This document shows positions 33,082 through 63,027 of a stretch of 64,000 nt of DNA, piece by piece. Position 1 is the stretch's first letter. Each line of letters opens with the position of its first letter. This DNA is from an uncultured Alistipes sp. (GTDB taxonomy: Bacteria > Bacteroidota > Bacteroidia > Bacteroidales > Rikenellaceae). Location of the stretch: positions 3,588 to 67,587 of the forward strand of contig CAUDHE010000002.1 of the NCBI GenBank assembly GCA_958449275.1, in the 5' to 3' direction. A model generated the notes under the pieces. The model was not told where the DNA came from, did not search any database, and was given only the letters and a program-made list of their open reading frames with translations. A program made the position numbers and the translations under genes.

Positions 33082-33110
33082 ATGTGGTTTGTTTATTATC
33101 ATTTGTTAAC

Positions 33111-33137: not shown

Positions 33138-33166
33138 GACTGCCGACCATGTGCCGGCACGAATCT

Positions 33167-33889
33167 CTACTCCACGAATCGGTCGGCCTTGGTCAGCATG
33201 CCGATACTGTCGCTCTCGCCCTCGTGCAATTTGTAATAGACCTTCACGAAAGCCACGTCGCGCAAGAAATCCACGTGTCCCACCTCCACCTTGTCGATCT
33301 TCAGTCCGAGACGCTGCTCCAGATCGGCCGTCAATTCGTCGCGACGTTCGGGCACGATCAGCTCGATGCGCTCGTAAAGCACCAGTTTGGCCGATGTGTG
33401 ACGCAGCAACAGACGTCTCTCCATAATCCACAGCAGTCCGAGAATCATCGCGTCGGCCGCCACGAGTTCGGCATACGAAATATTCAGGGCCAGACCGTTT
33501 ATCACCGCCGTCGAAATGATGATGAACAGATATGTCATTTCGCGTATGGGCACCGTTTCGGTTCGGTAGCGTATCACGCCGAATATGGCGAACAGTCCCA
33601 GCGTGAGGCCTATCTGCAACTTCACGTTCTCCATCAGGAATATGAGCAAAAACATGGCCGAGCTGAACAGCATGAACGTCAGCACATAATCGCGGCGACC
33701 GCTCTTGCGGTAGTAGCAGAAACGCACTATGAGCCACGATACCAGCAGGTTGAAAGCGAAGCGCATCAGCAGGTGGATGAGATTCTGCGTGTCGCACAAC
33801 GGTACCCCGAGAAAACTTATCTGCGAGGTGATGTCGTAGCCGAACTCTTCGGCTATCGAGGGGTCGAAATCCTGAAAATCCTGAATCAT
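33167..33889 (-). CDS. DUF4956 polytopic membrane protein
   Basis: LIHLLMRFAFNLLVSWLIVRFCYYRKSGRRDYVLTFMLFS...GLFAIFGVIRYRTE pattern. The start overlaps the VTC stop. Confidence 0.75.
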   Translation of the reverse strand: MIQDFQDFDPSIAEEFGYDITSQISFLGVPLCDTQNLIHLLMRFAFNLLVSWLIVRFCYYRKSGRRDYVLTFMLFSSAMFLLIFLMENVKLQIGLTLGLFAIFGVIRYRTETVPIREMTYLFIIISTAVINGLALNISYAELVAADAMILGLLWIMERRLLLRHTSAKLVLYERIELIVPERRDELTADLEQRLGLKIDKVEVGHVDFLRDVAFVKVYYKLHEGESDSIGMLTKADRFVE

Positions 33890-34758
33890 GCGTTATTCGT
33901 TTTACCGTTTATCGTTTTTATTATGCGTCGTATCTTTGCCTTGAAACGATTGCTCTTCACCCGAGGATTCGACAATGCCGTGCCGATGCAATATTTGCTG
34001 ACCTTCAGGGGGCGTATGCGCAACCTCCCGAGAATCCGTTTCATGGGCGACGGGGCCATGCCGTTCTGCTTCAGTTCCACGATGACCATCCCGCCCACGG
34101 AGACGGTCGCTCCGCAGTCGCCCGCGGCGACCGACAACGCACCGTCGGCAATGCCCGACGTGCAACGGTTTCTCGCGCCGTCAGCTCCGCCGCGGGCACG
34201 CACGTCGGTAAACGTCAGATTCCAGTCTATGGTAAGCCGTTCGGTACGCGCGTGATTCACCAGCGTTATCCGCTCGAAATTGGTCGCGAGGGCAGGCGTT
34301 ATCAATTCGGGAGGGTAGTTCGCTTTCGCCCGCAGAAACTCGGCCGCATCGGCATTGCGAGTCACCGCGGCGACGTCGGCGAAATCGATACGCATGCGGC
34401 GTTTTTTCGTCCGCCCCTTATTGGTCTTGTTCTTCACCTCTACGAAACTCACTCCCGACTCGACATAGGTGCGAGTGCGTATCTTCTGCCGCGCGAGCTT
34501 GCGATCGTGGTGCGACATATACATCCGTCTGTCGTCCGTATCGTAGTAGAGGGTCTCGTAACGGCATGCACGGCATTCGCCTATCGTCTGCACCGAATAG
34601 TCGTCCGCAGCCATGCGCAACATCTCCAGACACTGCTCCTCGCTGAGCACATACTTCGTGTCGACGCGATTCATCAGCTTTACGGCCGACATCTCGTCGA
34701 GACTCAGGGTCGGCATGTGCCGCCACAGCGTCAGGGTGTTAAGTTGTTCGAAGGTCAT
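33886..34758 (-). CDS. VTC-domain (polyphosphate-polymerase-like, triphosphate-tunnel fold) protein
   Basis: VKLMNRVDTKYVL, YETLYYDTDD, RQKIRTRTYVESGVSFVEVKNK, ERLTIDWNLTF, VIVELKQ, KVSKYCIG. Confidence 0.75.
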   Translation of the reverse strand: MTFEQLNTLTLWRHMPTLSLDEMSAVKLMNRVDTKYVLSEEQCLEMLRMAADDYSVQTIGECRACRYETLYYDTDDRRMYMSHHDRKLARQKIRTRTYVESGVSFVEVKNKTNKGRTKKRRMRIDFADVAAVTRNADAAEFLRAKANYPPELITPALATNFERITLVNHARTERLTIDWNLTFTDVRARGGADGARNRCTSGIADGALSVAAGDCGATVSVGGMVIVELKQNGMAPSPMKRILGRLRIRPLKVSKYCIGTALSNPRVKSNRFKAKIRRIIKTINGKTNNA

Positions 34759-39431: not shown

Positions 39432-39444
39432 TGTTCCGTTTCGA

Positions 39445-42400
39445 TTAGAAGTGATACTGAAGACCTATCTTGACCGTGCGCTGGAGCGGGTACGAGAGAC
39501 CGTTGCCGTTGCCCTTTTCGGGATCCCAGCAATCGAACGGCGAGATGGTGAAGAGGTTGCTGCCGGCGGCATAGATGCGGAAATTCCGTATCGACCAGCC
39601 CAGCTCGATGCTCTTCAGACGCAGGTAGTTCGACTTGCGCAGATAGTAGGTCGAGGCCTGAGTGTTGTTGTCGCTCGTGATCGAGGTCAGACGCGGATAC
39701 TCGGCATCGGCGCGGTTGTTGTCCCACGACCAGTGGTTGTCGGCGATGTACTGCGTGATACCGAATCCCGAGTTCGACGAAGTGGCGAACGGATGGTGGT
39801 TGTACATGCGCAACTGCACGTTGCCCGTACCTTGGAACATGAACGAGAAATCCCACGCCTTGTATTTCACGTTACCGCCGAAACCGTACTGTATCTCGGG
39901 AATGTAGGGCGTGTCGTCCCACACGTAGTCGTTGGCGTCGATCACATTGTCGCCGTTGATATCCTTGTATTTGATATCGCCCACCGAGTAGGTGCCGAAG
40001 CGCTGTTCGGGGCTTGAGTCGATCTCCTCCTGCGAAGTGAACAGTCCCTCGGCCACGAGTACGTTGTGAGCCTGCATGGGATGGCCGATCTTCGAGAGGT
40101 GCTTGTTCTTCTCGGGATACTCGGGCTCGTCCATGGCCTTCACCTCGTTGTGGGCGTAGGTGAACGTTCCGCGGACTCCTACGGTGAGATTCTCGTTTAC
40201 CACCTTGTTATAGCTTGCCGAGATGTCGACTCCTCGGTTATCGACCTCGCCGAGGTTGGCATAAGGCACTGTGGCACCCATACCTGCCGTGGCCGAGAGC
40301 GAATTGCGCTGCATGAAGATGTTGTAGCGGTGCTCGGTGAAGTAGTCCACGGCCAGAGTGAGCGAGTGGAACAGCTCCAGGTCGACACCCACATTCATCT
40401 TGTTGGCGATCTCCCAGGTGGCATCGGCATTACCGTAGGTGCTGATGTAACCCGCACCCTTGAAAGCGAAGTTGTTGCCGAAGTAGTAGCCGCGGTTGCC
40501 CATGTTCACGGAGGTGAGGTAGGGGAAACGGATACTCAGGGCGTCGTTACCCACCTGACCGTACGATCCGCGCAATTTGAGGTTGCTCACCACCTCTTTC
40601 AGCGGCGCGAAGAACTTCTCGTTCGAGATGTTCCAACCCAAAGCCGCCGAGGGGAAGAATCCGAAGCGCTTGCCCGAAGCGAAGTTCTCCGAACCGTTGT
40701 AACCGAAGTTGCCCTCGATGTAGTAGCGGCGATCGTAGTTGTAGGTGACGCGGCCCGCCAGACCCTGCTCGCGGAATGGCAGCAACTGCTCCTCCGACGA
40801 TCCGGTGGCGTTGTTCACCTTCTCCTTCATGTGGTATACGAAGTCGGCGCCCACGTCGTGCTTGCCGAATTTGCGCGAATACTTCACCGAAGCCTGCAAC
40901 GACCACTCGTGATAGCCGCTGTGACCCACGCTGCTGGTGAGGTAGGTGTTACCCTCGGTGCCGATGGTCGACGACGTGTAGTTGAAAGTGCCGTCGTCGT
41001 TCATCACCCAGTCGTCGTCCACACGGAAATAGTAGGGTGTCATGTAACGGTTGGTCGCTGCGTAAGAGTAGTTGTAGAACGACACCAGCGCATTGGCCGA
41101 CAGACCCTTGGTAACCATGTCGAGATTCTGATCCACGGTGAATGCCGCGGTCATGTACGAGTAGAAACGCTTCTTGTAACCTGCACTCATGCGGGCATAG
41201 GGGTTCAGCTCGGTCGAACCCGTATCCCACGAGTTGTTGTTACCGTAACGCACGAACGTGTCGCCGTCCTCGGCCGGCAGCACCGCGGGGAAACGCGCGG
41301 GGTTGGCACGCATCACCCAATAGAACAGGTCGCTGGTCGACTCGTAGGGAGTGTTGTTGTATTGCAGCTGAGTGTTGAGTTTGAGCGAAACCTTGGTCGT
41401 CTTGGTCATCATGGCCGACACGTTGCTCTGGAACAGATACTTCTGGTTGTTCATCGTAATGTCGAGCGGAGTCTCCTTCGGCTTCTTCAGAATACCGTTC
41501 TCGTTGAAAATCGAGGCGTTGAGGAAGTAGTTCACTCGCTGACCGCCGCCACGCATCGAGACGTTGAAACGCTGGTTGACGGCGAAGTTCTTGAACAACA
41601 TGCTGTACCAGTCGTTGTCGGGGAATACGTAAGGGTTCAGATGAGCGCGCGTGCCCTCGATCTTCTCCGACGAATAGAACGGCACGTACTGCGTGCCGGT
41701 GGCGCGCGCCTCGTTATACTTGGCCTCGTTGAAAAGCTCCATGTAGGTCACCGCGTCGGCCACGTCCTGCACCTTGGTAGGCATCGAGAATGTGTTGTCG
41801 ACGCTTACGTTCACCGACAGCTTCTCCGAGTTGCGGCCCTCCTTGGTAGTGATGATTATGACGCCGTTTGCTCCGCGCGAACCGTACAATGCGGTGGCGG
41901 TGGCATCCTTCAGCACCGAGAACGACTCGATAGATTCGGGCGGGATGTTGCCCAACATGGTAGAGGTGATCTCCACGCCGTCGAGCACCAGCAAGGCGCC
42001 CGTGTTCGATCCGAAGGTCGAGATACCGCGCACATAGAAATTGGCGCTGTCGTAACCCGGTTCGCCCGAGCTTTGAGTGGCGATCACGCCCGCGATGTTA
42101 CCCGCGAAACCCGTGGTGAGGTTACTCGAGGTCACCACCAGTTCGCTCGGTTTCACCGACTGCACGGCACCCACCAGCGACTCCTTCTTCTGGGTACCGA
42201 ATCCCACCACGACCACTTCGTCGATCTTGGTCTGCTGCTCGATCATGGTCACCAGCGTGAACAGATAGGGATCGCCCACCGAGATCTCCTTGGGATCGTA
42301 ACCTATCATTTCGAAAACTATGGTCTTGGCATCGGCGGGCACCTTGATCGAATATGCTCCGTTCACGTCCGATGAAACGCCGACTGCGGGATTCTCCTTC

Positions 42401-42654
42401 ACATAGACCGAAACGCCGACCAACGGTTTGTTGTCGCTCGATCCGATGATGAGACCCTTCAGAACCCCTTTTTCGTTTCGGTCCTGCGGCTCTGCGACAG
42501 TCGCCGATTTCGACGGCTTCGCGGTCCGATCCTTCGCTTCGGCGGCAAATGCCGTGCGAGCACCTGCCCCGACCAGAATGCTCGCGCCCAGCATCAGCGC
42601 CGCAAGGCGCCGAACCGAAAAACGAGACACTCGTTCAAAGAAAAAATTCCTCAT
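39445..42654 (-). CDS. SusC/RagA-family TonB-dependent outer-membrane transporter
   Basis: 1069 aa. CarboxypepD_reg-like LKGLIIGSSDNKPLVGVSVYV, plug motif LVLDGVEI...YGSRGANGVIIITTK, C-terminal ...GLQYHF. No STN/anti-sigma signalling domain. Confidence 0.93.
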   Translation of the reverse strand: MRNFFFERVSRFSVRRLAALMLGASILVGAGARTAFAAEAKDRTAKPSKSATVAEPQDRNEKGVLKGLIIGSSDNKPLVGVSVYVKENPAVGVSSDVNGAYSIKVPADAKTIVFEMIGYDPKEISVGDPYLFTLVTMIEQQTKIDEVVVVGFGTQKKESLVGAVQSVKPSELVVTSSNLTTGFAGNIAGVIATQSSGEPGYDSANFYVRGISTFGSNTGALLVLDGVEITSTMLGNIPPESIESFSVLKDATATALYGSRGANGVIIITTKEGRNSEKLSVNVSVDNTFSMPTKVQDVADAVTYMELFNEAKYNEARATGTQYVPFYSSEKIEGTRAHLNPYVFPDNDWYSMLFKNFAVNQRFNVSMRGGGQRVNYFLNASIFNENGILKKPKETPLDITMNNQKYLFQSNVSAMMTKTTKVSLKLNTQLQYNNTPYESTSDLFYWVMRANPARFPAVLPAEDGDTFVRYGNNNSWDTGSTELNPYARMSAGYKKRFYSYMTAAFTVDQNLDMVTKGLSANALVSFYNYSYAATNRYMTPYYFRVDDDWVMNDDGTFNYTSSTIGTEGNTYLTSSVGHSGYHEWSLQASVKYSRKFGKHDVGADFVYHMKEKVNNATGSSEEQLLPFREQGLAGRVTYNYDRRYYIEGNFGYNGSENFASGKRFGFFPSAALGWNISNEKFFAPLKEVVSNLKLRGSYGQVGNDALSIRFPYLTSVNMGNRGYYFGNNFAFKGAGYISTYGNADATWEIANKMNVGVDLELFHSLTLAVDYFTEHRYNIFMQRNSLSATAGMGATVPYANLGEVDNRGVDISASYNKVVNENLTVGVRGTFTYAHNEVKAMDEPEYPEKNKHLSKIGHPMQAHNVLVAEGLFTSQEEIDSSPEQRFGTYSVGDIKYKDINGDNVIDANDYVWDDTPYIPEIQYGFGGNVKYKAWDFSFMFQGTGNVQLRMYNHHPFATSSNSGFGITQYIADNHWSWDNNRADAEYPRLTSITSDNNTQASTYYLRKSNYLRLKSIELGWSIRNFRIYAAGSNLFTISPFDCWDPEKGNGNGLSYPLQRTVKIGLQYHF

Positions 42655-43431: not shown

Positions 43432-44277
43432 TTAGATCTCCGCCGTCAGAACCACGGGATAGTGATCCGAAATGTAGGGTGCGCCGTAATTCTTGTCGCA
43501 CAGTACGGCGAACGACTGCGCATCGGCATTGCGGAAGAATATGTGGTCGATCACCACGTCGTTCGCGCGTCCCCAGTCGTTGAACGTACCTCGGGGATCG
43601 CTCTGCGGGGCTTCGGCGCGGGCGTCGCGCATGACGGCCTTGAGCGGTTCGAAGATCGGCTCGTCGGTGGTGGAGTTGAAATCGGCCGTCAGAAAGAGCG
43701 GCATGCCCTCGGGAACCGATTCGCCCATACGCTTCACGATGAGTTTCAACGCTTCGGCGCGGGCCGTGGGGCCCACGTGGTCGAGATGGGTGTTGAAATA
43801 GGCGAACTCCTTGCCCGAATCTTTCATGCGCATCAAGGCCCATGTGCAGGTACGCTTGCATGCGCCGTCCCAGCCCTTCGACACCTCGTCGGGGGTCTCC
43901 GAAAGCCAGAAAGTGCCGCCGTCGAGCAGTTCCACGCGATCGGTGCGATAGTATATGGCCATTATCTCGCCCTCGGCTTTGCCGTCCTCGCGACCCACGC
44001 CTATGTGCTTGTAGTGAGGCAGATGCTCGTCGAGAAAGGCTATCTGGTCGGGACACCCTTCCTGAATGCCCATCACGTCGGGCTGTTCGTCGTTGACCAT
44101 GTTGATCGAAGCCTGCTTGCGGTTACTCCAATAATTGTCGCCGTCGGCCGCGGGAGATCCGCTCATGCGAATGTTGTAAGAGATGACCTTGATCGGGCTG
44201 TCCGCGCCTTTTTCCGTGCAACCGATCGCGGCGCACGCAATGGCGGCGCAGATCGAAAAGAGTAGAAGTTTCTTCAT
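43432..44277 (-). CDS. Endonuclease/exonuclease/phosphatase (EEP) family lipoprotein
   Basis: Lipoprotein signal MKKLLLFSICAAIACAAIGC. VISYNIR, GIQEG, C-terminal SDHYPV. Confidence 0.88.
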   Translation of the reverse strand: MKKLLLFSICAAIACAAIGCTEKGADSPIKVISYNIRMSGSPAADGDNYWSNRKQASINMVNDEQPDVMGIQEGCPDQIAFLDEHLPHYKHIGVGREDGKAEGEIMAIYYRTDRVELLDGGTFWLSETPDEVSKGWDGACKRTCTWALMRMKDSGKEFAYFNTHLDHVGPTARAEALKLIVKRMGESVPEGMPLFLTADFNSTTDEPIFEPLKAVMRDARAEAPQSDPRGTFNDWGRANDVVIDHIFFRNADAQSFAVLCDKNYGAPYISDHYPVVLTAEI

Positions 44278-52235: not shown

Positions 52236-53150
52236 CTATTCGAACGCTTCGCGGACTGGTTTGCCGCGCCATGCGTCGGGCGTGGCCGCGCCGAAAATGT
52301 AGGCGATGGTAGGCGCCGTGTCGTAGCGCATCACCGAAGCCGCAATTTCGTGGCCGCTCTTTACGCCGCGGCCGAAAAATATCAGCGGAGCCTCCATTTC
52401 CGCCATCGTGGTGCCGCCGTGTCCCGTTCCCGTGCCGCCGTGATCGGATACGATGACGAATATGGTGCCGTCGTACATGCCGACTCGCTTGGTCGTCGCC
52501 ACGATTCGGGCCAGATGCGCATCCAGTTCGTGCATGCGATCCATGTAAGGCTCCGATCCCCAGCCGTATTTATGCCCCTCCGCATCGGGCGAATCGTAGA
52601 TCACCATCGAAAACTCGGGCTTGTGCTCCGCGAGATAGGCGGTGAAGGCGTCGGTGATATCGTCGCTGCGGTTCTCGCCCGTCGGGATATGCTTGTGATA
52701 TGTCGCGGCCTTGTTGTCTATCAGGTCGCCCTGCACATCCCATTCGTACATGACGCATATGTCCATGTCGGGATCGTGGTCGCGCAGGACCGTCAGTATG
52801 GTGGGGAATATGCCGTTTTTGCCGAGTTCCACCGACGGGAAATCGGGCTTTCGGCTTCCCCAAGTATTGAACCCGTGCATTTCTGGCCCTACGCCCATAT
52901 ACATCGAAGCCCAGTTGCAGGCGCTCGACGAGGGGAGAATGCTGCGGGCTTTCGCTGTCCATGCGCCTTCGTCGATCATCGTTTGCAGGGTCGGCATGTC
53001 GAGTTTGTCGAGCACATTGCCTGCCAAACCGTCGAAGCCGACCACGACCACGTGTTTTACGCCGCGTATGCCTCCTCGGTCGTTTCCGACGCAAGATACG
53101 AATAACGCGAATGCCGACAGAGCGATCAGAAAGAGTGCGGTCTTTTTCAT
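52236..53150 (-). CDS. Alkaline-phosphatase-superfamily lipoprotein (nucleotide pyrophosphatase/phosphodiesterase-like)
   Basis: Lipoprotein signal MKKTALFLIALSAFALFVSC. VVVGFDGL, SSACNWASM, DSPDAEGHKYGW, SDHGG. Confidence 0.82.
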   Translation of the reverse strand: MKKTALFLIALSAFALFVSCVGNDRGGIRGVKHVVVVGFDGLAGNVLDKLDMPTLQTMIDEGAWTAKARSILPSSSACNWASMYMGVGPEMHGFNTWGSRKPDFPSVELGKNGIFPTILTVLRDHDPDMDICVMYEWDVQGDLIDNKAATYHKHIPTGENRSDDITDAFTAYLAEHKPEFSMVIYDSPDAEGHKYGWGSEPYMDRMHELDAHLARIVATTKRVGMYDGTIFVIVSDHGGTGTGHGGTTMAEMEAPLIFFGRGVKSGHEIAASVMRYDTAPTIAYIFGAATPDAWRGKPVREAFE

Positions 53151-53182
53151 GGGAAATGATTTTAGGGGTTATTTTTCGTATA

Positions 53183-53190
53183 CAAATATA
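53183..53190 (-). promoter_or_regulatory. -7 box (TATATTTG) for the phosphodiesterase gene
   Basis: Plus-strand CAAATATA, 33 nt upstream of the ATG at 53150. Confidence 0.5.
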
Positions 53191-53234
53191 ACCGAATCAT
53201 TCGATTCGCGCAATCGCCGCATTGCGAAACCGGT

Positions 53235-53270
53235 AAAAAAAACGGTTGTCCGCACAATGGGACAACCGTT
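53235..53270 (-). terminator. Rho-independent terminator of the coiled-coil gene
   Basis: Minus strand reads aacggttgtcc-(8-nt loop)-ggacaaccgtt, followed by T8. Confidence 0.8.
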
Positions 53271-53292
53271 GATGCTTCGGCGCCGTGAGCCG

Positions 53293-54213
53293 TTATCGCA
53301 TGGCGACGTCGGCCTGACCGATGAGACGGCCTTCGGTATAGAGCTCCACGCGATAGGTACCCGCGGTGAAGCCGCTGCCGTTGTAGAATATCTTGACGGG
53401 AAGATCGTCGTTCTGATAATCGACGTCGCGTTGCGCCGAGTATATCTTGGGTTCGCCTTCGAACGTGAACGACGCCGCATCGGGTGTCGACAGCACGTAG
53501 CCGTCGGGCGATGTGATGCAGACATATATGGTCTTGGCTCCCGGCTCGGCCAGTTCGTTGCCCGCCAGCACGAAGTTGACGCTCAGACGAGCCGCATTCT
53601 TCACTCGTGTGATCTCCTTGCTCTTGGCGTTGAGCGCCGCCATGGTTATGTTGCGGGCGCGGATTACCGAACCTACGCGCACCTTGTTGTTCAACTCCTC
53701 GGCACGCTCCTCGGCCATCTCTGCGCGCAACTGGGCGGTCGAAATCTCTTTCTTGTAGTTGATATTCTCTTTCACCAGCTTCTTGTTGAGGTTGTTGAGC
53801 GAGTCGATCTGACGTATGTAACCCTGCATCACGGTACGCAGCGTACCCACCTCTTTCTCATAAGCACGTATCTTGGCATAGTTGAGGCGACGCTCGTTCT
53901 TGAGCTGTTCCATCAGCTGGTTGGCCTCCTCGAGGTTGGCTGCGATGGAGTCGTTCTTGATCTTCAGGTCGTCGAACGAGACGATGAGACTGTCCAGATC
54001 GCCCTGAATCTTGTTGCGATCCTGTTCCAGAAGCACGTATTCGGCCTGCTGCTCGCGGTGTATGTTGAAGTAGAGCAACGACAATGCCACCAGTATGACT
54101 GCCAGAATTATGATTACTATACGGTAACCGCGCACGGCTTTGTTGTCCGTCTCCTGACGATCGTACTCGTCCTCGTACATCGAGTCGTCGTAATCGTTAT
54201 ATTCGTCTCTCAT
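53293..54213 (-). CDS. Single-pass membrane protein: acidic/Tyr-rich N-tail, coiled coil, beta-rich C-terminal domain
   Basis: MRDEYNDYDDSMYEDEYDRQE tail, TM helix IVIIILAVILVALSLLYF, heptad-like region of about 150 aa. Confidence 0.65.
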   Translation of the reverse strand: MRDEYNDYDDSMYEDEYDRQETDNKAVRGYRIVIIILAVILVALSLLYFNIHREQQAEYVLLEQDRNKIQGDLDSLIVSFDDLKIKNDSIAANLEEANQLMEQLKNERRLNYAKIRAYEKEVGTLRTVMQGYIRQIDSLNNLNKKLVKENINYKKEISTAQLRAEMAEERAEELNNKVRVGSVIRARNITMAALNAKSKEITRVKNAARLSVNFVLAGNELAEPGAKTIYVCITSPDGYVLSTPDAASFTFEGEPKIYSAQRDVDYQNDDLPVKIFYNGSGFTAGTYRVELYTEGRLIGQADVAMR

Positions 54214-54284
54214 AAACTTAATGTTTTTGATATTTCAGGTCCAATCCTCGGCGGGGCTGCCGACGGCACGCCCGCTTTCTCTCG

Positions 54285-54292
54285 CAAAGATA
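54285..54292 (-). promoter_or_regulatory. -7 box (TATCTTTG) for the coiled-coil gene
   Basis: Plus-strand CAAAGATA, 72 nt upstream of the ATG at 54213. Confidence 0.45.
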
Positions 54293-54419
54293 AGTTATTT
54301 TTGCAAACTATGTACAAATTTGCACTTTTTCTCGCCCTCCCGCGGCAGGGCGAAACGCAAAATTTCGACATAAGGAGAAAAAATGGCTTGAATATTGAGC
54401 GGGAATCGACATAAAATGA

Positions 54420-54427
54420 TATTTTTG
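54420..54427 (+). promoter_or_regulatory. -7 box (TATTTTTG) for the Trp-rich lipoprotein gene
   Basis: Exact TAnnTTTG match about 130 nt upstream of the ATG at 54555. Confidence 0.4.
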
Positions 54428-54554: not shown

Positions 54555-55892
54555 ATGTGCGCTATGAAGAACTTGAAGAGTATTTTAGTCGCGACACTCA
54601 CGGCACTGGCCGCGAGCGCATGCACGTCGGCCTATTATGGTTCGGCGGGCGATTACGACGATCTATACGCCACACACGACAGAGGAGCCATAGCCGACCG
54701 ACAGCGCGCCCAAGCCGAGGCACGTCGCGCCGAAGCCGAGGCTCGCAAGGCCGAAGCGGAAGCGCGTCAGGCCGAATGGAATGCCCGAACGGCCGAGATA
54801 CTTGCCGCTGCGGGCGGGATCGACGGCGTGACGGCAGCCGATTCGGACAATCGGATAATAATAGTCGAGGACGACTCGCCGCAGAGTTTCGTGGCCGACA
54901 GCTACGAAAGCGCCTATGCGCGCCGTCTGCGCGGATTCACCTCGCCCAACTACCGCATGCCGTCGAGCTACTTCAATTTGCGCTACGGAGGCAGCTACGC
55001 CTTCGCCACGGCCTACGACCCTGCGGTATACAACATAATGGTGTCGGGCGATCAGGTGTGGGTGGAGCCCAAGTACATCACCTCCATGTTCGGCACGTGG
55101 GGTGCGGCCAATGCCACGGCCATACTCTGCTCGCCGTGGTACTACGGCTGGAGTCATTACGACCCGTGGTACTATTCGTGGTGGGGATACCCCCGCTATT
55201 CGTGGTACGACTGGAATTGGAACATATGTTATGGATGGAATTACGGCTGGGGGTCCAACATTTGGTGGGGCTGGGGCGGACTCTATCGTCCGTGGCATTA
55301 CCACCATTACGGCCCGGGCTGGGGAGGTCCTCACTGGGGACACGACCATTGGGGCTGGGGACCGCAGTACGGCGGCGGTGGCGGCGGTTACTGGAACCGC
55401 GGCGGCAGCTACTACGGTTCGCGCAACAACGACACCCGATTCCCGGGTGGAGGCAATTCGCGCCCCTCGCGCGGCAATTCGATAGTGAACCGCGGCTCGT
55501 CGACCTCGACGCCCTATCGCTCGCCCAACACGGGCAACTCTTACGGTACGCCGTCGCGCGGCAGCAACGCCGCCGCAAACATCCGTCAGGAGACTTCGGG
55601 TTCGCGAGGCCGAGGTACGGTCACCACCTCGACCACCACGAACCGCAACGACAACGGTTCGATGCGCAACCGCAACACGTTGGAAAACCGCACCACCACG
55701 CGCAACGACGACAGCTACCGCAACAACAGCAATTACAACAATAACAATTCGAGTTTCAATTCTAACCGCGGCACCTCGTCGTCTTCGTCGTTCGGATCGG
55801 GTTCGTCGGGCGGTGCCTCGCGCGGAGGCGGCTTCTCGGGCGGTAGCGGCAGCGGCGGCGGTTCGCGAAGCGGCGGCTCGCGCGGACGATAA
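54555..55892 (+). CDS. Low-complexity lipoprotein: AEAR repeats, Trp/Tyr/Gly-rich block, S/N/R/G-rich RGG-like tail (start 54555 or 54564)
   Basis: Only this frame has a lipoprotein signal (MKNLKSILVATLTALAASAC). See the corresponding finding. Confidence 0.65.
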   Translation: MCAMKNLKSILVATLTALAASACTSAYYGSAGDYDDLYATHDRGAIADRQRAQAEARRAEAEARKAEAEARQAEWNARTAEILAAAGGIDGVTAADSDNRIIIVEDDSPQSFVADSYESAYARRLRGFTSPNYRMPSSYFNLRYGGSYAFATAYDPAVYNIMVSGDQVWVEPKYITSMFGTWGAANATAILCSPWYYGWSHYDPWYYSWWGYPRYSWYDWNWNICYGWNYGWGSNIWWGWGGLYRPWHYHHYGPGWGGPHWGHDHWGWGPQYGGGGGGYWNRGGSYYGSRNNDTRFPGGGNSRPSRGNSIVNRGSSTSTPYRSPNTGNSYGTPSRGSNAAANIRQETSGSRGRGTVTTSTTTNRNDNGSMRNRNTLENRTTTRNDDSYRNNSNYNNNNSSFNSNRGTSSSSSFGSGSSGGASRGGGFSGGSGSGGGSRSGGSRGR

Positions 55893-55922
55893 TGTCCATA
55901 ACATTAACTAAATGTGTGCAAA

Positions 55923-57569
55923 ATGAAAATAATCGGAAAACTTTCGCTTCTCATAGCCTCGGCAGCCTTTGCGGGCACCGCCTCGGCGCAATACAGGTTC
56001 GGCGGACTGATGATGGACCACGACGGCATGATGTCGAACGACATGTATTCGCTCTCGCAGGCGGGCTTCGGATTCGGCACCGCCCGCTCGATGGGTATGG
56101 CCGGAGCATTCGCCTCGCTCGGCGGCGACGCGGCGTCGATGGGCATCAATCCCGCGGGACTGGGCATGTATCGCCACAACGAGGTGACGATAAGCCCGAT
56201 AATGGGGTTCAACAACGCGGTCAACAGCGCGGCCGACTGGGGCGACAACAAACAGAGCCGATTTGCGATGAGCAACATCGGCGCCGTGTTCAACGTCTAC
56301 GAAAGCAGCCGCACGCGACTGGTGAGCCTCAGCGTCGGAATAGGCTACAACCGAGTGGCCGACTTCAACTACCGCTACGGCTTCACGTCGGAAAGCGGCC
56401 CGTCGAACGCCCCCTACCGATCGATTAACGACGCGTTCTCGCGTCAGCTCGGGCAAGGCGGCATATTCCCCGACAAGAACGGCAATCTCAACTACGGTTA
56501 CGACATGGCTTACTACTGGGGCGGCGCACTGGCCTACAACGGCTATATGCTCGATACGGGCGAAGACGAATTCGGCCCCTATTGGACCACGGCCGACCGC
56601 CTTGGCGTAAATGCGAGCGTGGGCCACACGGCCGGCGTCGAGAGCCGCGGTTCGATAGGCGAATACGACATTGCGTTCGGATGCAATTTCGACAGCAAAT
56701 TCTACCTCGGCGCGACCATCGGTTTGCAGGCCGTAGACTGGAAACGCCAGTTCTACTACGGCGAGGACTACATCTATAACGGTGAAACGCCGGTCCGCTC
56801 GGACGGCACACCCCTGCAAACGCCCGCCAAATGGATGGATTACAATCAGGCCGTCGACGTGTCGGGCACGGGCGTAAACTTCAAACTGGGCTTCATCTGG
56901 CGTCCCATTCCCGCCCTGCGCGTAGGCGCGGCCTTGCATACGCCCACCTACTATTCGCTCAAGCGCAGCTATCAGGCATATGCCGCGACCAATTTCAATC
57001 CTAACGGCGACACCACGCCTTCGCTCGACGACGACGGCGACAATACGTGGGATTTTGTTTCGCCCACGCGCCTCATGTTCGGACTCTCGTACACCGTGGG
57101 CCGCTTCGCCATCATCTCGGCCGACTACGAACGCGACTGGTACAACGGCATGCGCGTGAAAAACATACCGTCGGGATTCGACCTCACGAAAGCCGACTAC
57201 CGTTCGGAGTTCACCAATAACTTCAAGGGTTCCAATACGCTGCGCGTCGGATTGGAGGTTAAGCCGCTGCCCGCATTAGCCCTGCGTGCGGGTTACGGTG
57301 TGGCCGATTCTATGCTCCGCAACGAAAAGGAGCTGTATTACAACTCGCCTCTCACATACAAGAGCACCTGCTGCTCGGGCGGTCTGGGCCTGGCTTTCGG
57401 CGGATTAAACGTCGATCTCACATATCAGTATCTCGAGAACAAGCAGACCGAGTATATGCTCTATTATGCGCTCGACAGCCGTTCGGGAACGTTCGACACG
57501 GCGAGCCCCGTCTATTCGACCGATCTGAAGCGCAACTACGTCATACTCTCCGTAGGATATAAATTCTGA
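55923..57569 (+). CDS. FadL/PorV-like outer-membrane beta-barrel protein
   Basis: Signal peptide MKIIGKLSLLIASAAFAGTASAQ, GFGTARSMGMAGAFASLGGDAASMGINPAGLG, C-terminal ...LSVGYKF. The ORF-track start 55914 is a GTG. Confidence 0.7.
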   Translation: MKIIGKLSLLIASAAFAGTASAQYRFGGLMMDHDGMMSNDMYSLSQAGFGFGTARSMGMAGAFASLGGDAASMGINPAGLGMYRHNEVTISPIMGFNNAVNSAADWGDNKQSRFAMSNIGAVFNVYESSRTRLVSLSVGIGYNRVADFNYRYGFTSESGPSNAPYRSINDAFSRQLGQGGIFPDKNGNLNYGYDMAYYWGGALAYNGYMLDTGEDEFGPYWTTADRLGVNASVGHTAGVESRGSIGEYDIAFGCNFDSKFYLGATIGLQAVDWKRQFYYGEDYIYNGETPVRSDGTPLQTPAKWMDYNQAVDVSGTGVNFKLGFIWRPIPALRVGAALHTPTYYSLKRSYQAYAATNFNPNGDTTPSLDDDGDNTWDFVSPTRLMFGLSYTVGRFAIISADYERDWYNGMRVKNIPSGFDLTKADYRSEFTNNFKGSNTLRVGLEVKPLPALALRAGYGVADSMLRNEKELYYNSPLTYKSTCCSGGLGLAFGGLNVDLTYQYLENKQTEYMLYYALDSRSGTFDTASPVYSTDLKRNYVILSVGYKF

Positions 57570-57586: not shown

Positions 57587-58438
57587 ATGAAGAGACTCAA
57601 ATTTTTATTGGCGACGGCATTGGCCGCGGGGTTGTGCGGCTGCGGGTCCGAAGCGGAATTCCGCCTCGCATCGTACAACATACGCTATGACTCGCAGGCC
57701 GACGCGCAAAACGGCGACGGATGGGACGACCGCAAAGGCGCGGTCGCGGAAATGATACTGTCGCACGACATCGATATTGCGGGCACGCAAGAGGGCGATC
57801 GGCGGCAGCTCGACGATCTGCTGGCCCTCATGCCCGACTACGACTGCATCAGCCATCCCTACGGGGGCAAGAACGGCGATCTGCATAACTGTGCCACTTT
57901 CTATCGCCGCGACCGTTTCGAGGTGCTCGACGAGGGGACTTTCTGGTACAGCGAGACGCCCGACGAAAAGAGTCTCGGATGGGATGCCACCGATCTGCGC
58001 ATATGCAACTGGGGCAAATTTCGGGATAAGCGGTCGGGCAAGGAGTTCTATCTGTTCAATTCGCATTTCTACTGGCGCCTGAAAGAGGCCAAGCGCAATT
58101 CGGGCAAGGTGCTGTGCGACAAGATCGGGCAGTTGGCGGGCGATGTCGCGGTCATCTGTACGGGCGATTTCAATTCCACCGACGACACGCCGCAGATCAA
58201 GGATATCGAAAAGTTGCTGAGCGATGCCCGCCGCATAAGCGAAAGCCTCCCCACGGGACCTGAGAAGACCGATTTGGGCGGCGGCAACTTCCAAGGCGCG
58301 CCTAAGGCTCGTATAGACTACGTATTCGTGAACGGCCGCGTGAAGGTAGAGAGTTACGACGTGCCCGAGGATGTGCGCGAGAACGGCCATTATCCGTCGG
58401 ATCATCTGCCCGTGGTGTGCCGGCTCGCAATCGATTAA
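57587..58438 (+). CDS. Endonuclease/exonuclease/phosphatase (EEP) family lipoprotein, paralogue of 43432-44277
   Basis: Lipoprotein signal MKRLKFLLATALAAGLCGC. LASYNIR, GTQEG, SDHLPV. Confidence 0.88.
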   Translation: MKRLKFLLATALAAGLCGCGSEAEFRLASYNIRYDSQADAQNGDGWDDRKGAVAEMILSHDIDIAGTQEGDRRQLDDLLALMPDYDCISHPYGGKNGDLHNCATFYRRDRFEVLDEGTFWYSETPDEKSLGWDATDLRICNWGKFRDKRSGKEFYLFNSHFYWRLKEAKRNSGKVLCDKIGQLAGDVAVICTGDFNSTDDTPQIKDIEKLLSDARRISESLPTGPEKTDLGGGNFQGAPKARIDYVFVNGRVKVESYDVPEDVRENGHYPSDHLPVVCRLAID

Positions 58439-58609: not shown

Positions 58610-60094
58610 ATGGCAGTTGAACTTAAAGATCTGACCAAAGTCGAGGACAACTACTCGAAATGGTACAACGACCTGGTCGTGAAAGCGGGTCTGGCCGAAA
58701 ATTCGGCCGTAAGAGGATGTATGGTAATCAAACCCTACGGTTACGCCATCTGGGAGAAGATGCAGCGCGTGCTGGACGACATGTTCAAGCAGACGGGCCA
58801 CGAGAACGCCTATTTCCCGCTGTTCATCCCCAAATCGTTCTTCTCGCGCGAAGCGCACCACGTAGAGGGTTTCGCCAAGGAGTGCGCCGTGGTGACTCAC
58901 TACCGTCTGAAGAATGATCCCGACGGCAAGGGTATCGTGGTCGATCCCGCCGCCAAACTCGAGGAGGAACTTATAGTGCGTCCCACTTCGGAGACCATAA
59001 TCTGGAATACCTATAAGAACTGGATCACATCCTATCGCGACCTGCCCATACTCTGCAATCAGTGGGCCAACGTTGTGCGTTGGGAGATGCGCACCCGTCT
59101 GTTTCTGCGCACCGCCGAGTTCCTTTGGCAGGAGGGACACACGGCGCATGCCACCCGCGAGGAGGCTGTGGCCGAGGCCGAGAAGATGATACGTGTTTAC
59201 CAAAGTTTCGCCGAGGAGTGGATGGGCGTGCCCGTTATCGTGGGGCACAAGTCGCCCAACGAACGCTTTGCGGGCGCCGAGGATACTCTCACCATCGAAG
59301 CCCTGATGCAGGACGGCAAGGCTTTGCAGAGCGGCACCTCGCACTTCCTCGGACAGAACTTCGCCAAGGCTTTCGACGTGACGTATACCACCAAGGAGGG
59401 CGGTCAGGAGTATGTGTGGGCCACTTCATGGGGCGTGTCGACACGTCTGATGGGCGCGCTCATCATGGCGCATTCCGATAACAACGGTCTGGTGCTGCCG
59501 CCCAAACTCGCCCCGATTCAGGTGGCTATGGTCCCCATATACAAAGGCGCCGAGCAGCTTGCCGTCATGACCGAGAAGATGGAGGCGATAGCCGCCGAAC
59601 TGCGTGCCCGCGGCATCAGCGTGAAGGTCGACACTCGCGACAACGTGCGCTCGGGCTTCAAGTTCGCCGAATACGAGCTCAAGGGAGTGCCCGTGCGTCT
59701 GGCCCTCGGCCCGCGCGATCTTGAAAACGGTACCATCGAGCTGGCGCGCCGCGACACCCTTTCGAAAGAGACCGTGTCGCAGGAGGGACTGGCCGACCGT
59801 ATCGTTGCTCTCATGGACGAGATTCAGGCCAACATATTCCGCAAGGCACTCGATTACCGTACCTCGATGATTACGCGTGTCGATACTTGGGACGAGTTCG
59901 TCGACGTTCTCGACAACAAGGGCGGATTCATTTCGGCTCACTGGGACGGTAGCGTCGAAACCGAGGTGGCTATCAAGGAGGCCACCAAAGCCACCATCCG
60001 CTGTATCCCTCTCGACGCCGAAGAGGAGGAGGGCAAATGCGTCTATACGGGCAAGCCGTCGCATCGCCGCGTTCTTTTCGCCCGCAGCTATTGA
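58610..60094 (+). CDS. proS: Proline--tRNA ligase (archaeal/eukaryote-like type)
   Basis: 494 aa. [36 protein letters not shown]-terminal ...RVLFARSY. Confidence 0.96.
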
Positions 60095-60155: not shown

Positions 60156-60192
60156 TGCGACTCTCATGTCGTAACCCGCAGATATGCCCGAT

Positions 60193-60221
60193 AAAAAACC
60201 GCCCGAGGATTCTCGGGCGGT
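60193..60221 (-). terminator. Rho-independent terminator of the helical-repeat/DUF1080 gene
   Basis: Minus strand reads accgcccgag-aatc-ctcgggcggt, followed by TTTTTTAT. Confidence 0.8.
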
Positions 60222-60243
60222 AAGGTTTCGAATGCGGGAACCG

Positions 60244-63027
60244 TTACAACTCCTTGATACGCACGTTGCGCAGTTTGATACCCTGGCCGTGGCCGAGGAA
60301 TCCGATGTGGCCCTTCTTGTTGAACAGGCCCGGGTGATTGAGATGATCCACCGTGTAGGGGTTGTTGTTGCTGCCGTCGGGAGCCACGTTGTGACCCTTG
60401 CAGGCCTTGCGTATGTTGCCGTCGAGGATCACCTCGCCGTTGACGATCACGGTGATGTGGTCGCCCTTGGCACGGATCTCTTCGGTATTCCACACGCCCA
60501 GCTCGGGCGATACTATGCGCTTGGCGGGGATGATGCCGTATACCGAGCCGTGCACCTGATATTCACGCAGATTGGCGTATATCGGATCGTCGTGATCGAG
60601 GATCTGAATCTCCATGCCGTGGTATGCAGCGTCGACACCCATCGGGGTACGGATACCCACGCCGTTGTTGACGCCCGCGCGGTCGAAGTAGAACTCGAAG
60701 CGCAGTACGAAGTCGTCGTACTCCTTAACCGAATAGAGATTGCCCGTGCTGCCGTACGATGCGGTCACGTACATGTAACCGTCGATGGGCTGGTAAGCGG
60801 TGGTGTTACCCTGCCATTTGTCCATCGACACACCGTCGAAGAGCATTTCGAAGCCCTCGGCCTCCTCCTCGGGGGTGAGTTTCGACACGATCGAGTGCGA
60901 CTCGCGCTCCTTGTTCTCCGAGATGAATTTCTCGATGTCCTTACGCTTGTAAACGGCGTCGCCGTCGTTGAGCGTCGCGCCCACCTTTTCCAGCAGAGCC
61001 TTCACCTCGGCGCTGTAGAATTCGGGGTGCTTGGTGGCGATCTCCAGCACGGTGTTGGCCGCAGCCTGCGCCGTGGCTTCGGAGTCGAGATACTCGGCTG
61101 CGAGCATCATACCCTGGTAGGTCTGCGTGGCCGACAAGGCGCGCAGAGCATGGTTCTTGAGGTTCGTTATGGGATTGAGTTCGAGAGCCTGACGATATTT
61201 CATATATTTCTGCTCGCCGTTGAGCTTCGAAGCGCCTACCAGTCGGATGTAGTGGCTCAGAGCCGCATCCTTGAGGTCGACGTCCGACGCGGCTATGTCG
61301 TACATGGGCTGTATCATGGCGTCGTCGTTGACCATTGTCATGCCTGCGAAAGCGGCACTCTGCTTGTTGCCTGCCTTATATCCCTCTACCAGCATGGGGA
61401 TCACCTCGGCGGAACCCGTGGCTGCCAAGACGAGATAGTAGAGATGCTTGTTGTCGCCCGCCTTGGCCATGCGGGCCTTGATCATCTTCACTTGCTCGGC
61501 AGCAGGTTTGTCCTGAATGGCCTTGTTGACAGCCTTGCTTACGTTCTTTCCCGCCTCCAGCATGTTGCATACGGCGTCGAAATTCTTCTCGCTGACCACA
61601 TTGGGCAGAACTGCGATCGCAGCCTCGTCGCCCGCTTCGGCCGCGGCCAGAACCTTGGCGGCGGCCTCGGGGATGCGGCGGGTGTTCAGCACACCGTAAG
61701 CCACGGTTTTGCTCACCTTGTTACCGTCCAGAGCTTCGACAATACCGTCGTTGATTTTGCCGTTGAACGAGAGGAGCGCGTTGTGCGCCACGGTCAGCAA
61801 CTCGCTGTCCGAATAGTCGAGCGTCTCCACCTTGGCGAGGATGGCTTCGAGAGCTTTCTCGCCGCCTATGCGGCTCGCCGCCTCCATAGCCTCTACGGCC
61901 ACTTCCGCATTGGGATTCGAGATCTGCGCGCAAACGGCGTCGATCTGCGACTCGGCGTGGTTGGCGCCCAGCCAGTTGATTACGTCTATTTTGGCGGCGT
62001 CGTTCAGACGTGGCATGGCGGCAGCCACGGCGGCGTAGGTCTTGTCATTGGCGAACGCCTCGGCGGCACGCATGGCACCGTAACGGTACTCGCGGCACTT
62101 GTCCGAAAGAGCCTTCACCACCAGCGGAGTCACGGCCTCGCCCTTGAGCTGCACGAGCAGGTCGAGACCCGCCAGACGCACGTTGCTCTTGTCGAACTTC
62201 ATCATCTGCTTGGCGGCAGCCTCCACGGCCTTGGGGCTGTGCTTCATCAGGTGGCCGTTGAGCAGGATGAGGTATGCGCCGTAGGCATCGGTCGGCTCGA
62301 ATGTGTAACCCGCAGCTTTGGCGGCTGCGCCCAGCACTTTGGCCGATTTCTCGCCGCCGCTCAGAGCAAGCGCATTATAAATATGTACGGCCTCTTCGGG
62401 CGTGGCGGTTTTGGCCCACTCGATGAGGATATCCTCTGCCCCGTGGAAATGGTGCTTGTACGAGGCTATCTGTGCCAGCAGCGCTTTGCTCAGGCCGTTG
62501 GCATTCTGACTCTGCATGAGCTCCAGCACCTTGTCCTCGGTACCTGCGACCGACGCCAAAGCGCGGGCCGCGAAGTTGCCCAGATACTCGTCGCCGAGAA
62601 ACGAAGCGAAGAAATCGGCGTCGTCGGCCGTGGCGCACTCCTCGAGCACCGTCAGCAGGAACGCCTTGTTGGGATTGTCGCTCACCTTGGCCACGGCGGC
62701 TTTCAAGCCCTCGCGCACACCGCCGCGAAGCGATTCATGATCTTTCGACACGTATGCCGCCACGCCGTTCAGAGCGTATTCGATGGTCGAATTTTTCACA
62801 CCCTCGGCTGCGGGCTTGAGCATGGCGCCGAGCATCTCGATACCTTCGCTGCCCGTAGCGGCCAGCTCGCCCATGATCTGATTGTAGTTGTCGGGCGTCT
62901 CGGCGGGCAGTTGCGCCAGCGCGTCGGCGACGATGGTCGAAGCGACGCGGCCTCGCGCATCCTGAGCATGAACGGCCGAGAAGGCCATCGATGCCGCCAA
63001 GGTCAATATGATGAATAGTCTTTTCAT
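60244..63027 (-). CDS. Secreted protein with a ~690-aa alpha-helical (HEAT/ARM-like) repeat region fused to a C-terminal DUF1080 (3-keto-disaccharide-hydrolase-like) domain
   Basis: Signal peptide MKRLFIILTLAASMAFSAVHAQ. The C-terminus FEMLFDGVSMDKWQGN...LRFEFYF...NNGVGIR...EIQILD...HGSVYG...GHIGFLGHGQGIKLRNVRIKEL is DUF1080-like. ORF-track start 63447 overlaps the next gene. Confidence 0.8.
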   Translation of the reverse strand: MKRLFIILTLAASMAFSAVHAQDARGRVASTIVADALAQLPAETPDNYNQIMGELAATGSEGIEMLGAMLKPAAEGVKNSTIEYALNGVAAYVSKDHESLRGGVREGLKAAVAKVSDNPNKAFLLTVLEECATADDADFFASFLGDEYLGNFAARALASVAGTEDKVLELMQSQNANGLSKALLAQIASYKHHFHGAEDILIEWAKTATPEEAVHIYNALALSGGEKSAKVLGAAAKAAGYTFEPTDAYGAYLILLNGHLMKHSPKAVEAAAKQMMKFDKSNVRLAGLDLLVQLKGEAVTPLVVKALSDKCREYRYGAMRAAEAFANDKTYAAVAAAMPRLNDAAKIDVINWLGANHAESQIDAVCAQISNPNAEVAVEAMEAASRIGGEKALEAILAKVETLDYSDSELLTVAHNALLSFNGKINDGIVEALDGNKVSKTVAYGVLNTRRIPEAAAKVLAAAEAGDEAAIAVLPNVVSEKNFDAVCNMLEAGKNVSKAVNKAIQDKPAAEQVKMIKARMAKAGDNKHLYYLVLAATGSAEVIPMLVEGYKAGNKQSAAFAGMTMVNDDAMIQPMYDIAASDVDLKDAALSHYIRLVGASKLNGEQKYMKYRQALELNPITNLKNHALRALSATQTYQGMMLAAEYLDSEATAQAAANTVLEIATKHPEFYSAEVKALLEKVGATLNDGDAVYKRKDIEKFISENKERESHSIVSKLTPEEEAEGFEMLFDGVSMDKWQGNTTAYQPIDGYMYVTASYGSTGNLYSVKEYDDFVLRFEFYFDRAGVNNGVGIRTPMGVDAAYHGMEIQILDHDDPIYANLREYQVHGSVYGIIPAKRIVSPELGVWNTEEIRAKGDHITVIVNGEVILDGNIRKACKGHNVAPDGSNNNPYTVDHLNHPGLFNKKGHIGFLGHGQGIKLRNVRIKEL

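Follow-up and report, generated by a model that had tools for sequence, protein, structure and literature searches.

A conserved pairing of an aromatic-rich, predicted disordered lipoprotein with a FadL-type outer-membrane barrel in Bacteroidota

Why would a bacterium encode, immediately upstream of an outer-membrane barrel, a lipoprotein with a block crowded with tryptophan and tyrosine and a long polar, arginine-rich tail? The question is raised by a 64,000-nt stretch of DNA (58% GC) from an uncultured Alistipes sp. (GenBank assembly GCA_958449275.1, contig CAUDHE010000002.1, positions 3,588 to 67,587 of the forward strand), which we refer to as the window. A sequence-only reading of this DNA had proposed that the lipoprotein is displayed at the cell surface and that the barrel is its own export or anchoring partner. 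The computational analysis reported here indicates, on comparative sequence evidence, that the two-gene unit of lipoprotein and FadL-type barrel is real and is conserved in Bacteroidota, and points to a different orientation of the lipoprotein from the one that had been proposed.

A lipoprotein gene and its constant neighbour

The open reading frame (ORF) that had been singled out, 54555-55892 on the plus strand and 445 aa long, is present as described, and residues are numbered here from its first Met, at nt 54555. Translation probably begins at the second Met (MKNLK, nt 54564), where homologues have their start, and gives a protein of 442 aa. To place the gene among its relatives we used a scan of one genome per species, which returned 200 loci encoding a relative of the lipoprotein; the best 80 were kept, 78 of them titled Alistipes or Rikenellaceae. 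The ORF is unbroken in 80 of 80 loci, with no sign of the decay expected of a pseudogene. In alignments with four relatives of 71-90% identity, third-position differences exceed those at first and second positions in every segment, including the tail, where the comparison with relative L001 gives 8, 5 and 43 differences at codon positions 1, 2 and 3. Indels in the same four alignments cluster in the His/Gly stretch and the tail, the core having only 0-4 gap columns, and the length of the protein among relatives (342-602 aa) varies mostly by its tail. By this pattern of substitution the frame is coding and the gene is under selection.

Two further ORFs that had been noticed across the gene are both present. 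They had been ascribed to the repetitiveness of the DNA, an explanation that did not hold: Tandem Repeats Finder returns only a 21-bp repeat of 3.3 copies, coinciding with the DNA of a long helix described below, and trivial short runs, and similarly long shadow ORFs cover ordinary genes of the window (e.g. 52711-54414 and 60184-63018).

A protein search found 771 homologues of the lipoprotein at E<=1e-3. The top 120 are 350-545 aa long and, where they carry meaningful names, are hypothetical proteins of Alistipes or Rikenellaceae. Neither the single sequence nor profiles matched any entry of Pfam, NCBIfam or the PDB. An exhaustive search of 1.84 billion representative proteins with the core (residues 100-253) as query yielded only 185 clusters, the distant ones deriving from uncultured Bacteroidales and having the same lipoprotein architecture. 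In the literature we found no report on tryptophan-rich disordered lipoproteins of Bacteroidales or on a FadL-lipoprotein pairing in Alistipes.

The proposal that lipoprotein and barrel belong together was borne out. The two genes are adjacent in 78 of the 80 loci, the contigs of the other two ending before the barrel, and adjacency holds even where barrel identity has fallen to 34%. The same is seen in nine distant Bacteroidales/Bacteroidota loci with Pfam-annotated neighbours, one of them on a Tara Oceans (marine) scaffold: the pair is adjacent in all nine, and the gene just upstream of the barrel is always a member of the lipoprotein family. Four of these contexts came from the core search and have a barrel of ~500-570 aa downstream, with a match to the Pfam family Toluene_X in three of the four and proS divergently upstream in three of the four; the other five read proS on the minus strand, then an unannotated protein of 408-535 aa and the barrel, both on the plus strand. 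In total, 8 of the 9 have proS upstream of the lipoprotein gene and divergent from it. When one distant barrel was used as a query it found 2400 homologues, those with names being OmpP1/FadL-family transporters or hypothetical proteins from metagenome-assembled genomes of Bacteroidota/Bacteroidales. Profile-profile alignment with hhalign joins the close and distant barrels at E 1e-109 over 481 columns, and the close and distant lipoproteins at E 7e-40, in an alignment of 154 columns that begins at the signal peptide and reaches the VWVEP hairpin. As measured by these alignments, the close and distant pairs are homologous and form one superfamily each, and the pair is a conserved and old unit.

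No neighbour other than the barrel is constant. proS adjoins the pair in 46 of the 80 loci and the gene for an EEP-fold lipoprotein in 26, and the upstream genes vary. Nor do the nine annotated contexts place the barrel in a fatty-acid locus: no Pfam family of fatty-acid degradation, or of aromatic degradation, is listed among its neighbours there.

The distribution of promoter-like motifs can be read in the same direction. In the window there are 33 copies of the Bacteroidetes-type -7 motif TAnnTTTG where 14.6 would be expected, a number that none of 100 shuffles reached, and the motif could serve to delimit transcription units. On the plus strand two copies precede the lipoprotein gene, the next standing only at 58504, just before proS. 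Between lipoprotein and barrel genes there are 30 nt without a promoter motif, and between the barrel and EEP genes 17 nt. This motif distribution, together with the short gaps, fits a single transcript of lipoprotein, barrel and EEP genes, and the first two are probably co-transcribed.

The EEP-fold lipoprotein itself had been correctly recognised (Exo_endo_phos, PF03372, E 4e-18), but its inclusion in the unit was not sustained, given its presence in just 26 of 80 loci and its homology to a glycan phosphatase, the mannosyl-6-phosphatase of PDB entry 4c1r (E 6e-40). For the same two reasons we rejected a VolA-like role, in which it would act as a phosphodiesterase on lipids and supply the channel. 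The window holds a second Exo_endo_phos lipoprotein (43432-44277, minus strand), paralogue-like to that at 57587-58438; in each of the two, a pair of acidic residues shortly behind the lipobox Cys predicts surface export.

Architecture and orientation of the two proteins

The lipoprotein begins with the signal that had been read from the sequence, ending LTALAASAC and followed by the stretch QAEARRAEAEARKAEAEARQAEW. Cys23, the lipidation site, is invariant in an alignment of 18 sequences and nearly so in one of 62. A linker of 8-14 residues, free of acidic residues, leads to the motif DD[LIV]Y, which is kept in distant lineages; the 18-sequence alignment shows D35, D36, Y38 and H41 without variation. 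The next element is a helix at residues 43-86, the sole long segment that AlphaFold modelled confidently (mean predicted local distance difference test, pLDDT, of 83-93 by block over residues 41-80, against 47 for the whole lipoprotein). In Alistipes it consists of the helix AEAEARRAEAEAR, distant homologues carrying other polar or charged spacers in its place, and it is probably a spacer.

A core of ~75 residues comes next and carries the positions that do not vary across the family (R, D, Y, N, W, E, P and F); it reads SYESAYARRLRGF ... AYDPxFYNVMVSGDQVWVEPKYITSMFG, with the consensus Y..AY.RRL.GF ... AYDP.FYNV.V.GD.VWVEP.Y. In the AlphaFold model the structure of this core is limited to a short helix at 117-125 and a hairpin at 159-172, both with low confidence. 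At the mean pLDDT quoted above there is no usable fold, and we dropped the monomer model as a source of one. On this model the lipoprotein is mostly disordered.

The earlier count of 19 Trp among the 88 residues 193-280 is exact, and the same stretch has 15 Tyr, 21 Gly and 7 His. In the 39 other called genes of the window Trp accounts for 1.2% of the residues and the richest 88-residue stretch holds at most 7, and the binomial probability of 19 in 88 is 1.8e-18. After the aromatic block comes, in Alistipes homologues, a stretch rich in His (consensus RPW..HHHH.GG.H). The supposed kinship to YXWGXW-type (or WXXGXW-type) repeat lipoproteins found no support, as the patterns Y.WG.W and W..G.W are unmatched and there is no Pfam or NCBIfam match.

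The wealth of tryptophan, as distinct from that of aromatic residues, belongs to one clade. Lineages at 32-42% GC have a Tyr-rich block with W/(W+Y) of 0.05-0.27 (e.g. the YNPYGFG repeats of locus L089), Alistipes at 58-62% GC has values of 0.36-0.44, and total W+Y stays at 9-16% of the protein across the family. Because low-GC relatives are Tyr-rich at a similar total, the extreme Trp content is, by this comparison, a one-clade feature inside a broader aromatic-rich family. This suggests that genome composition shapes the choice of aromatic residue (TGG versus TAY codons), an explanation that rests mainly on the extremes, since the correlation of GC with Trp share over 90 loci is weak (Spearman rho 0.21, P 0.05).

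The tail is as polar as had been noted: its last 165 residues are 80% S/G/N/R/T (S 22%, G 19%, N 16%, R 13%, T 10%) and only 3.6% I/L/V/M, with a net charge of +16, and its end reads ...GGSGSGGGSRSGGSRGR. Within it Y321, R322, S323, P324, G327 and Y330 are invariant in 62 sequences. The description of the tail as RGG-box-like has to be softened. An RGG/RG box consists of di- or tri-RGG spaced by no more than 4 residues, and here two RGG triplets stand far apart among 11 RG dipeptides, with a family median of one RGG per tail, so that the tail is better called RG/SR-rich. We also considered a covalent C-terminal tether of the kind found in Braun lipoprotein (Lpp), whose C-terminal Lys is joined to peptidoglycan by an L,D-transpeptidase, and rejected it since the last residue is Arg in 87 of 90 family members and Lys in only 3.

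Surface display, which had been assumed for this protein, is not what its N-terminus predicts. The lipoprotein export signal of Bacteroidota was taken as a minimum of two acidic residues over the six or so that follow the lipidated Cys, a criterion as in PMC12578637. None of the 55 homologues scored has any acidic residue at +1 to +6, and distant members likewise have none, whereas the EEP lipoprotein (CGSEAEF) and a DUF5036 lipoprotein (CSKDDAP) each have two within +6. Because the export signal is missing, the lipoprotein most likely faces the periplasm, as far as such a signal predicts.

The second protein of the pair is, as had been stated, a 548-aa barrel with a signal peptide, starting with an ATG at 55923 and ending VGYKF. 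Taken singly it matches no Pfam family at E<=0.01, and at E<=0.1 just the irrelevant DUF5419. Profiles are more informative: a profile built from 25 close homologues matches TbuX in the PDB at E 2e-8, and a profile built from 15 diverse members matches TbuX (9.6e-13) and the Pseudomonas aeruginosa FadL homologue 3dwo (1.6e-9), as well as CymD and TodX. Ten of the 15 diverse barrels match Toluene_X (PF03349; best E 2.4e-14), and many barrel homologues carry a precomputed annotation with this family. The AlphaFold model (pLDDT 72.7, predicted TM-score 0.73) has a pattern of strands and turns that can be read as 14 strands, an N-terminal hatch and long extracellular loops; the secondary-structure assignment by DSSP breaks strand 3 at 151-152 (E136-150, E153-161), as would fit the kink by which FadL channels open sideways. 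The first 27 matches in Foldseek are all FadL-family chains (probability 1.0, target-normalised TM-score 0.58-0.66), the top three being BamG of three solved Bacteroidota BAM complexes (E about 1e-16), with TodX and FadL at nearly equal scores. From profiles and model together, the barrel is a member of the FadL/TodX family.

The description of the barrel as FadL/PorV-like thus stands in its first half, the predicted fold being that of FadL with a hatch that bears the NPA motif. PorV likeness could not be upheld: NF033709 scores 27.9 bits against a cutoff of 90 and NF052325 16.8 against 325, and only the N-terminal hatch motif matches. NPA (N76, P77, A78) is invariant in the alignment of diverse barrels, and in the distant group N60 and P61 are invariant and A62 is at least 90% conserved. 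FadL mutants N33A, P34A and delta-NPA are in the PDB and appear among the Foldseek matches. The window barrel has 53 residues before NPA versus 32 in Escherichia coli FadL (NPA at 33-35, from the mutant names). This N-terminal extension (GG...D.D.....D) is limited to the Alistipes clade and missing in distant barrels; in close barrels M34, D35, D37, G38, M39, M40, D43 and M44 show no variation. A further outer-membrane barrel of the window (27854-29320, minus strand, 488 aa) has a sub-threshold match to PorV/PorQ (NF033709, E 3.5e-8, 33 bits against the cutoff of 90); as a paralogue of the paired barrel it was rejected, the two being unrelated by BLASTP.

Table 1. Features of the lipoprotein-barrel locus, in window coordinates
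Feature	Position	Strand	Basis or remark
Bacteroidetes-type -7 promoter motif (TATTTTTG)	54420-54427	+	motif match only; second copy at 54296-54303
Lipoprotein gene	54564-55892	+	442 aa from Met 54564, or 445 aa from 54555
Signal peptide and lipobox, to Cys23	54555-54623	+	Cys23 invariant or nearly so
YDDLYATHDR motif (family form DD[LIV]Y)	54654-54683	+	near lipid anchor; kept in distant lineages
Long Ala/Glu/Arg helix, residues 43-86	54681-54812	+	AlphaFold; probably spacer
Conserved core, residues 112-186: SYESAYARRLRGF ... AYDPAVYNIMVSGDQVWVEPKYITSMFGTWGA	54888-55112	+	family-wide invariant residues
Aromatic/Gly/His block, residues 193-280	55131-55394	+	19 Trp
Predicted disordered polar cationic tail, residues 281-445	55395-55889	+	composition
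Short tail motif VNRGS..STPYRSPN.G..YG	55485-55547	+	conserved
Basic C-terminus GSRGR	55875-55889	+	conserved basic last residue
FadL/TodX-family outer-membrane barrel, 548 aa	55923-57569	+	profile, Pfam (relatives), AlphaFold, Foldseek
Barrel signal peptide	55923-55988	+	
Barrel N-terminal tail and hatch	55989-56156	+	NPA at 56148-56156
EEP-fold lipoprotein	57587-58438	+	PF03372; facultative neighbour
proS	58610-60094	+	recurrent neighbour; context only

Possible roles of the pair

What, then, could the two proteins do together? The reading that we favour, at a probability of roughly 40%, is that they form an outer-membrane complex, probably facing the periplasm, that serves the envelope. The short conserved elements in the N-terminal part of the lipoprotein (DD[LIV]Y, RRL and VWVEP) would dock on or in the barrel and hold the complex together; short conserved segments without a predicted fold of their own are typical of folding upon partner binding. 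We infer this docking because these elements do not fold alone in the AlphaFold model and because BamG-BamH offers a precedent, in which strands of a FadL-like barrel leave between them a groove that holds the conserved lipoprotein N-terminus (PMC12578637, PMC12611786). The same work, of 2025, showed that FadL-like barrels in Bacteroidota can be structural partners of lipoproteins and not only transporters, and described a paralogous BamG2-BamH2 pair, Bt1785/Bt1786, in a putative operon (PMC12578637, PMC12611786). The helix, as a spacer, might keep the rest of the chain off the outer membrane, and the aromatic block and cationic tail would make up a flexible, multivalent 'sticky' appendage facing the periplasm, whose charge of +16 could allow it to bind anionic peptidoglycan or phospholipid. 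A general role in envelope architecture or maintenance would then be preferred over niche-specific nutrient uptake, because the export signal is missing and because the neighbours are housekeeping genes (proS; elsewhere DUF349, pyrG and yidC) across very different habitats.

Several points weigh against such an envelope complex. Lipid anchoring is not universal in the family: the member at locus L084 (4267-5535, protein P0384) has a signal peptide and no lipobox Cys (…SLSSSVYAQGYVDDLYG). The lipoprotein has no peptidoglycan-binding domain, and the predicted periplasmic turns of the barrel are just 2-5 residues long and would leave little surface for docking from that side. The low AlphaFold confidence may stem in part from a shallow alignment (62 sequences, ~55-65% identity). 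That the NPA hatch is intact and that the barrel is related in sequence to TbuX, TodX and FadL point to a working channel for hydrophobic compounds, which fits uptake better than structure. Finally, the export signal serves as a predictor, and the partner barrel could still bring the lipoprotein to the surface. As a separate observation on L084, the mature protein there would be free of a lipid anchor and would carry DD[LIV]Y very near its N-terminus.

The main rival, which we regard as possible but somewhat unlikely, is the uptake of hydrophobic compounds. Here the barrel would be a FadL/TodX-type channel and the aromatic block of the lipoprotein would capture or concentrate ligands such as fatty acids, bile acids or quinones and hand them over, with SusD/SusC, BtuG/BtuB and the volA-fadL pair of Vibrio cholerae as analogues. 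That the barrel is nearest in sequence to TbuX, 3dwo, CymD and TodX and not to BamG or PorV, that its hatch motif is invariant, that conserved charged residues are located in its strands and that the aromatic content of its partner is steady family-wide all speak for this reading, as does the fact that Bacteroidota characteristically use pairs of barrel and lipoprotein for uptake (PMC12578637). A lipoprotein family lacking the export signal is, however, not predicted to act in capture at the cell surface, and the lipoprotein has no predicted binding fold. Among the Pfam-annotated neighbours in the nine distant contexts and the window there is also no family for the catabolism or activation of a hydrophobic substrate, and the housekeeping setting is common to gut, marine and other metagenome-derived lineages.

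Somewhat less likely still is the model of the sequence-only reading, according to which the barrel would export the disordered lipoprotein or anchor it on the surface, in the manner of Slam (type XI) or PorP, with the lipoprotein acting as an adhesin, a former of matrix or condensate, or a binder of extracellular DNA or polysaccharide. The family lacks the export signal, the hatch plugs FadL-type lumens and we know of no FadL-family protein exporter; the barrel is not of the DUF560/Slam type (no DUF560 or TPR match), and no adhesin-type domain is present. Yet the order of lipoprotein then barrel is strict, a nearly all-unfolded, Gly/Ser-rich chain such as the model predicts could be threaded, and aromatic 'stickers' with an Arg-rich tail form a composition known to favour self-association. 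Adhesion, the formation of amyloid or condensates and the binding of nucleic acid would all accord with that composition. The modelled strands 235-259, 263-287 and 307-332, each ~25 residues long, are moreover like the extracellular 'pillar' of BamG that holds BamH (PMC12611786), and the combination of variable extracellular loops with a conserved lipoprotein core, seen in this pair, has been reported for BamG-BamH as well (PMC12578637).

A more daring variant, which we consider distinctly improbable, would make the FadL-type barrel a dedicated partner, possibly a threading device acting through its lateral opening, for a lipid-anchored, disordered protein of FUS-like composition that would associate with itself and so make a layer, gel- or condensate-like, either in the periplasm or at the surface. 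If this were true, Bacteroidota would have a widespread envelope scaffold built of low-complexity protein and not of folded domains.

Mere adjacency appears very unlikely. Two functionally unrelated genes could have been kept together by an inherited gene order around proS, a neighbour of the pair in 46 of the 80 close loci and in 8 of the 9 distant ones, and the block of proS, lipoprotein, barrel, DUF349 and pyrG is kept whole in several lineages. The pair nevertheless persists where proS and all other neighbours are lost (~34 of 80 loci; L087) and whatever the side or orientation of proS, and its genes lie on the same strand with short gaps and no promoter motif between them. A role in metal handling is barely credible: the His/Gly/Trp stretch (GGPHWGHDHWGWG) resembles the copper-binding octarepeat of the prion protein, and the barrel tail MMDHDGMM could bind Cu or other metals, with a His-rich run in Alistipes homologues and invariant Met/Asp-rich residues in the tails of close barrels, but outside the close clade the barrel motif turns into GGTALDNDILHWGDL or disappears, many distant lipoproteins have no His run, and no metal-homeostasis Pfam family is found among the annotated neighbours.

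Surroundings of the pair and known systems compared

The position of proS differs among lineages, being downstream on the same strand in Alistipes and divergently upstream elsewhere (L081, L084, L085, L088-L092). In L085, L091 and L092 the barrel is followed by DUF349 and pyrG (then yidC in L091), and a ~230-aa gene without Pfam match lies beyond proS. Upstream of the lipoprotein gene, the window has genes for a coiled-coil membrane protein (53293-54213), a phosphodiesterase lipoprotein, an MqnA-like protein and CorA (to about 49000). Because these genes are found in none of the 6-kb upstream flanks of the 80 related loci, including relatives with an 85-90% identical lipoprotein, gene content suggests that synteny is broken in the source genome immediately upstream of the lipoprotein gene.

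Farther away, the window encodes a Bat/aerotolerance-type operon at 516-6270 on the plus strand (MoxR AAA_3 ATPase, DUF58, an unannotated gene, a TPR protein and two BatA/VWA proteins). On the minus strand there are a cluster of VTC-domain protein, DUF4956 and DUF2490 at 32305-34758, which may relate to polyphosphate, and a SusD-family lipoprotein adjoining a TonB-dependent SusC-like receptor (Plug, CarboxypepD_reg) at 37545-42654. Elsewhere lie genes for a GH123 glycosidase (22505-24397) and for a protein of 927 aa bearing a 3-keto-disaccharide hydrolase domain (60244-63027). A tRNA-Glu (anticodon CTC; 12686-12760, minus strand) is the sole Rfam/ARAGORN match in the window.

Outer-membrane complexes that join a barrel to a lipoprotein are characteristic of Bacteroidota, and the present pair spans gut Rikenellaceae, a Tara Oceans scaffold and other uncultured lineages, in housekeeping surroundings. 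If the two proteins do form a complex, they would provide a workable system for the role of disordered 'sticky' proteins in the bacterial envelope, and would show if the docking of lipoproteins is a general function of FadL-fold barrels.

Among known systems, BamG-BamH is the nearest precedent, likewise joining a FadL-fold barrel with a lipoprotein, and the extended N-terminal tail of Alistipes-clade barrels may be a further likeness, one that distant members lack. The window barrel was rejected as a BamG orthologue, since no BamG chain (9n2d_B, 9hiv_F, 9hjm_F) appeared in three PDB profile searches (E up to 1 or 10); in structural alignments the two are 11-12% identical and the window barrel is ~100 residues longer. 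BamH and the window lipoprotein have no similarity by profile, and BamH carries an export signal whereas the window lipoprotein lacks one and is largely disordered as modelled. The FadL/TodX/TbuX channels (PF03349) share with the barrel a topology that fits 14 strands, the N-terminal hatch, NPA and the profile matches; they differ in that the window barrel has larger loops (548 aa versus 360-444 modelled residues in solved chains), falls below the Pfam reporting threshold and belongs to a group always preceded by the lipoprotein family.

In the volA-fadL operon of V. cholerae, a surface lipoprotein lysophospholipase is co-transcribed with a FadL homologue and cooperates with it at the outer membrane. 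The order of lipoprotein then FadL-type barrel is the same, but VolA is a folded enzyme, whereas the window lipoprotein has no enzymatic domain and is predicted to be mostly disordered. Slam (type XI) and PorP-PorE (type IX; PMC9143113) likewise place a barrel beside a partner or dependent lipoprotein; the window barrel is neither DUF560 nor PorP/PorV, and the TPR and OmpA-like peptidoglycan-binding domains are absent. RG/RGG proteins of the FUS type are alike in composition, with aromatics spaced by Gly/Ser/Asn/Gln and then an Arg/Gly/Ser-rich region, and show no homology, and the likeness to the His/Gly/Trp octarepeat of the prion protein is one of composition only, the window lipoprotein being lipid-anchored in a bacterial envelope. 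Set against these systems, barrel-lipoprotein pairing as a kind and the barrel superfamily are known, and what is new is a FadL-type barrel with a largely disordered, lipid-anchored partner. The locus adds a third, unstudied FadL-type clade, one whose obligate partner is a low-complexity, aromatic and cationic lipid-anchored chain.

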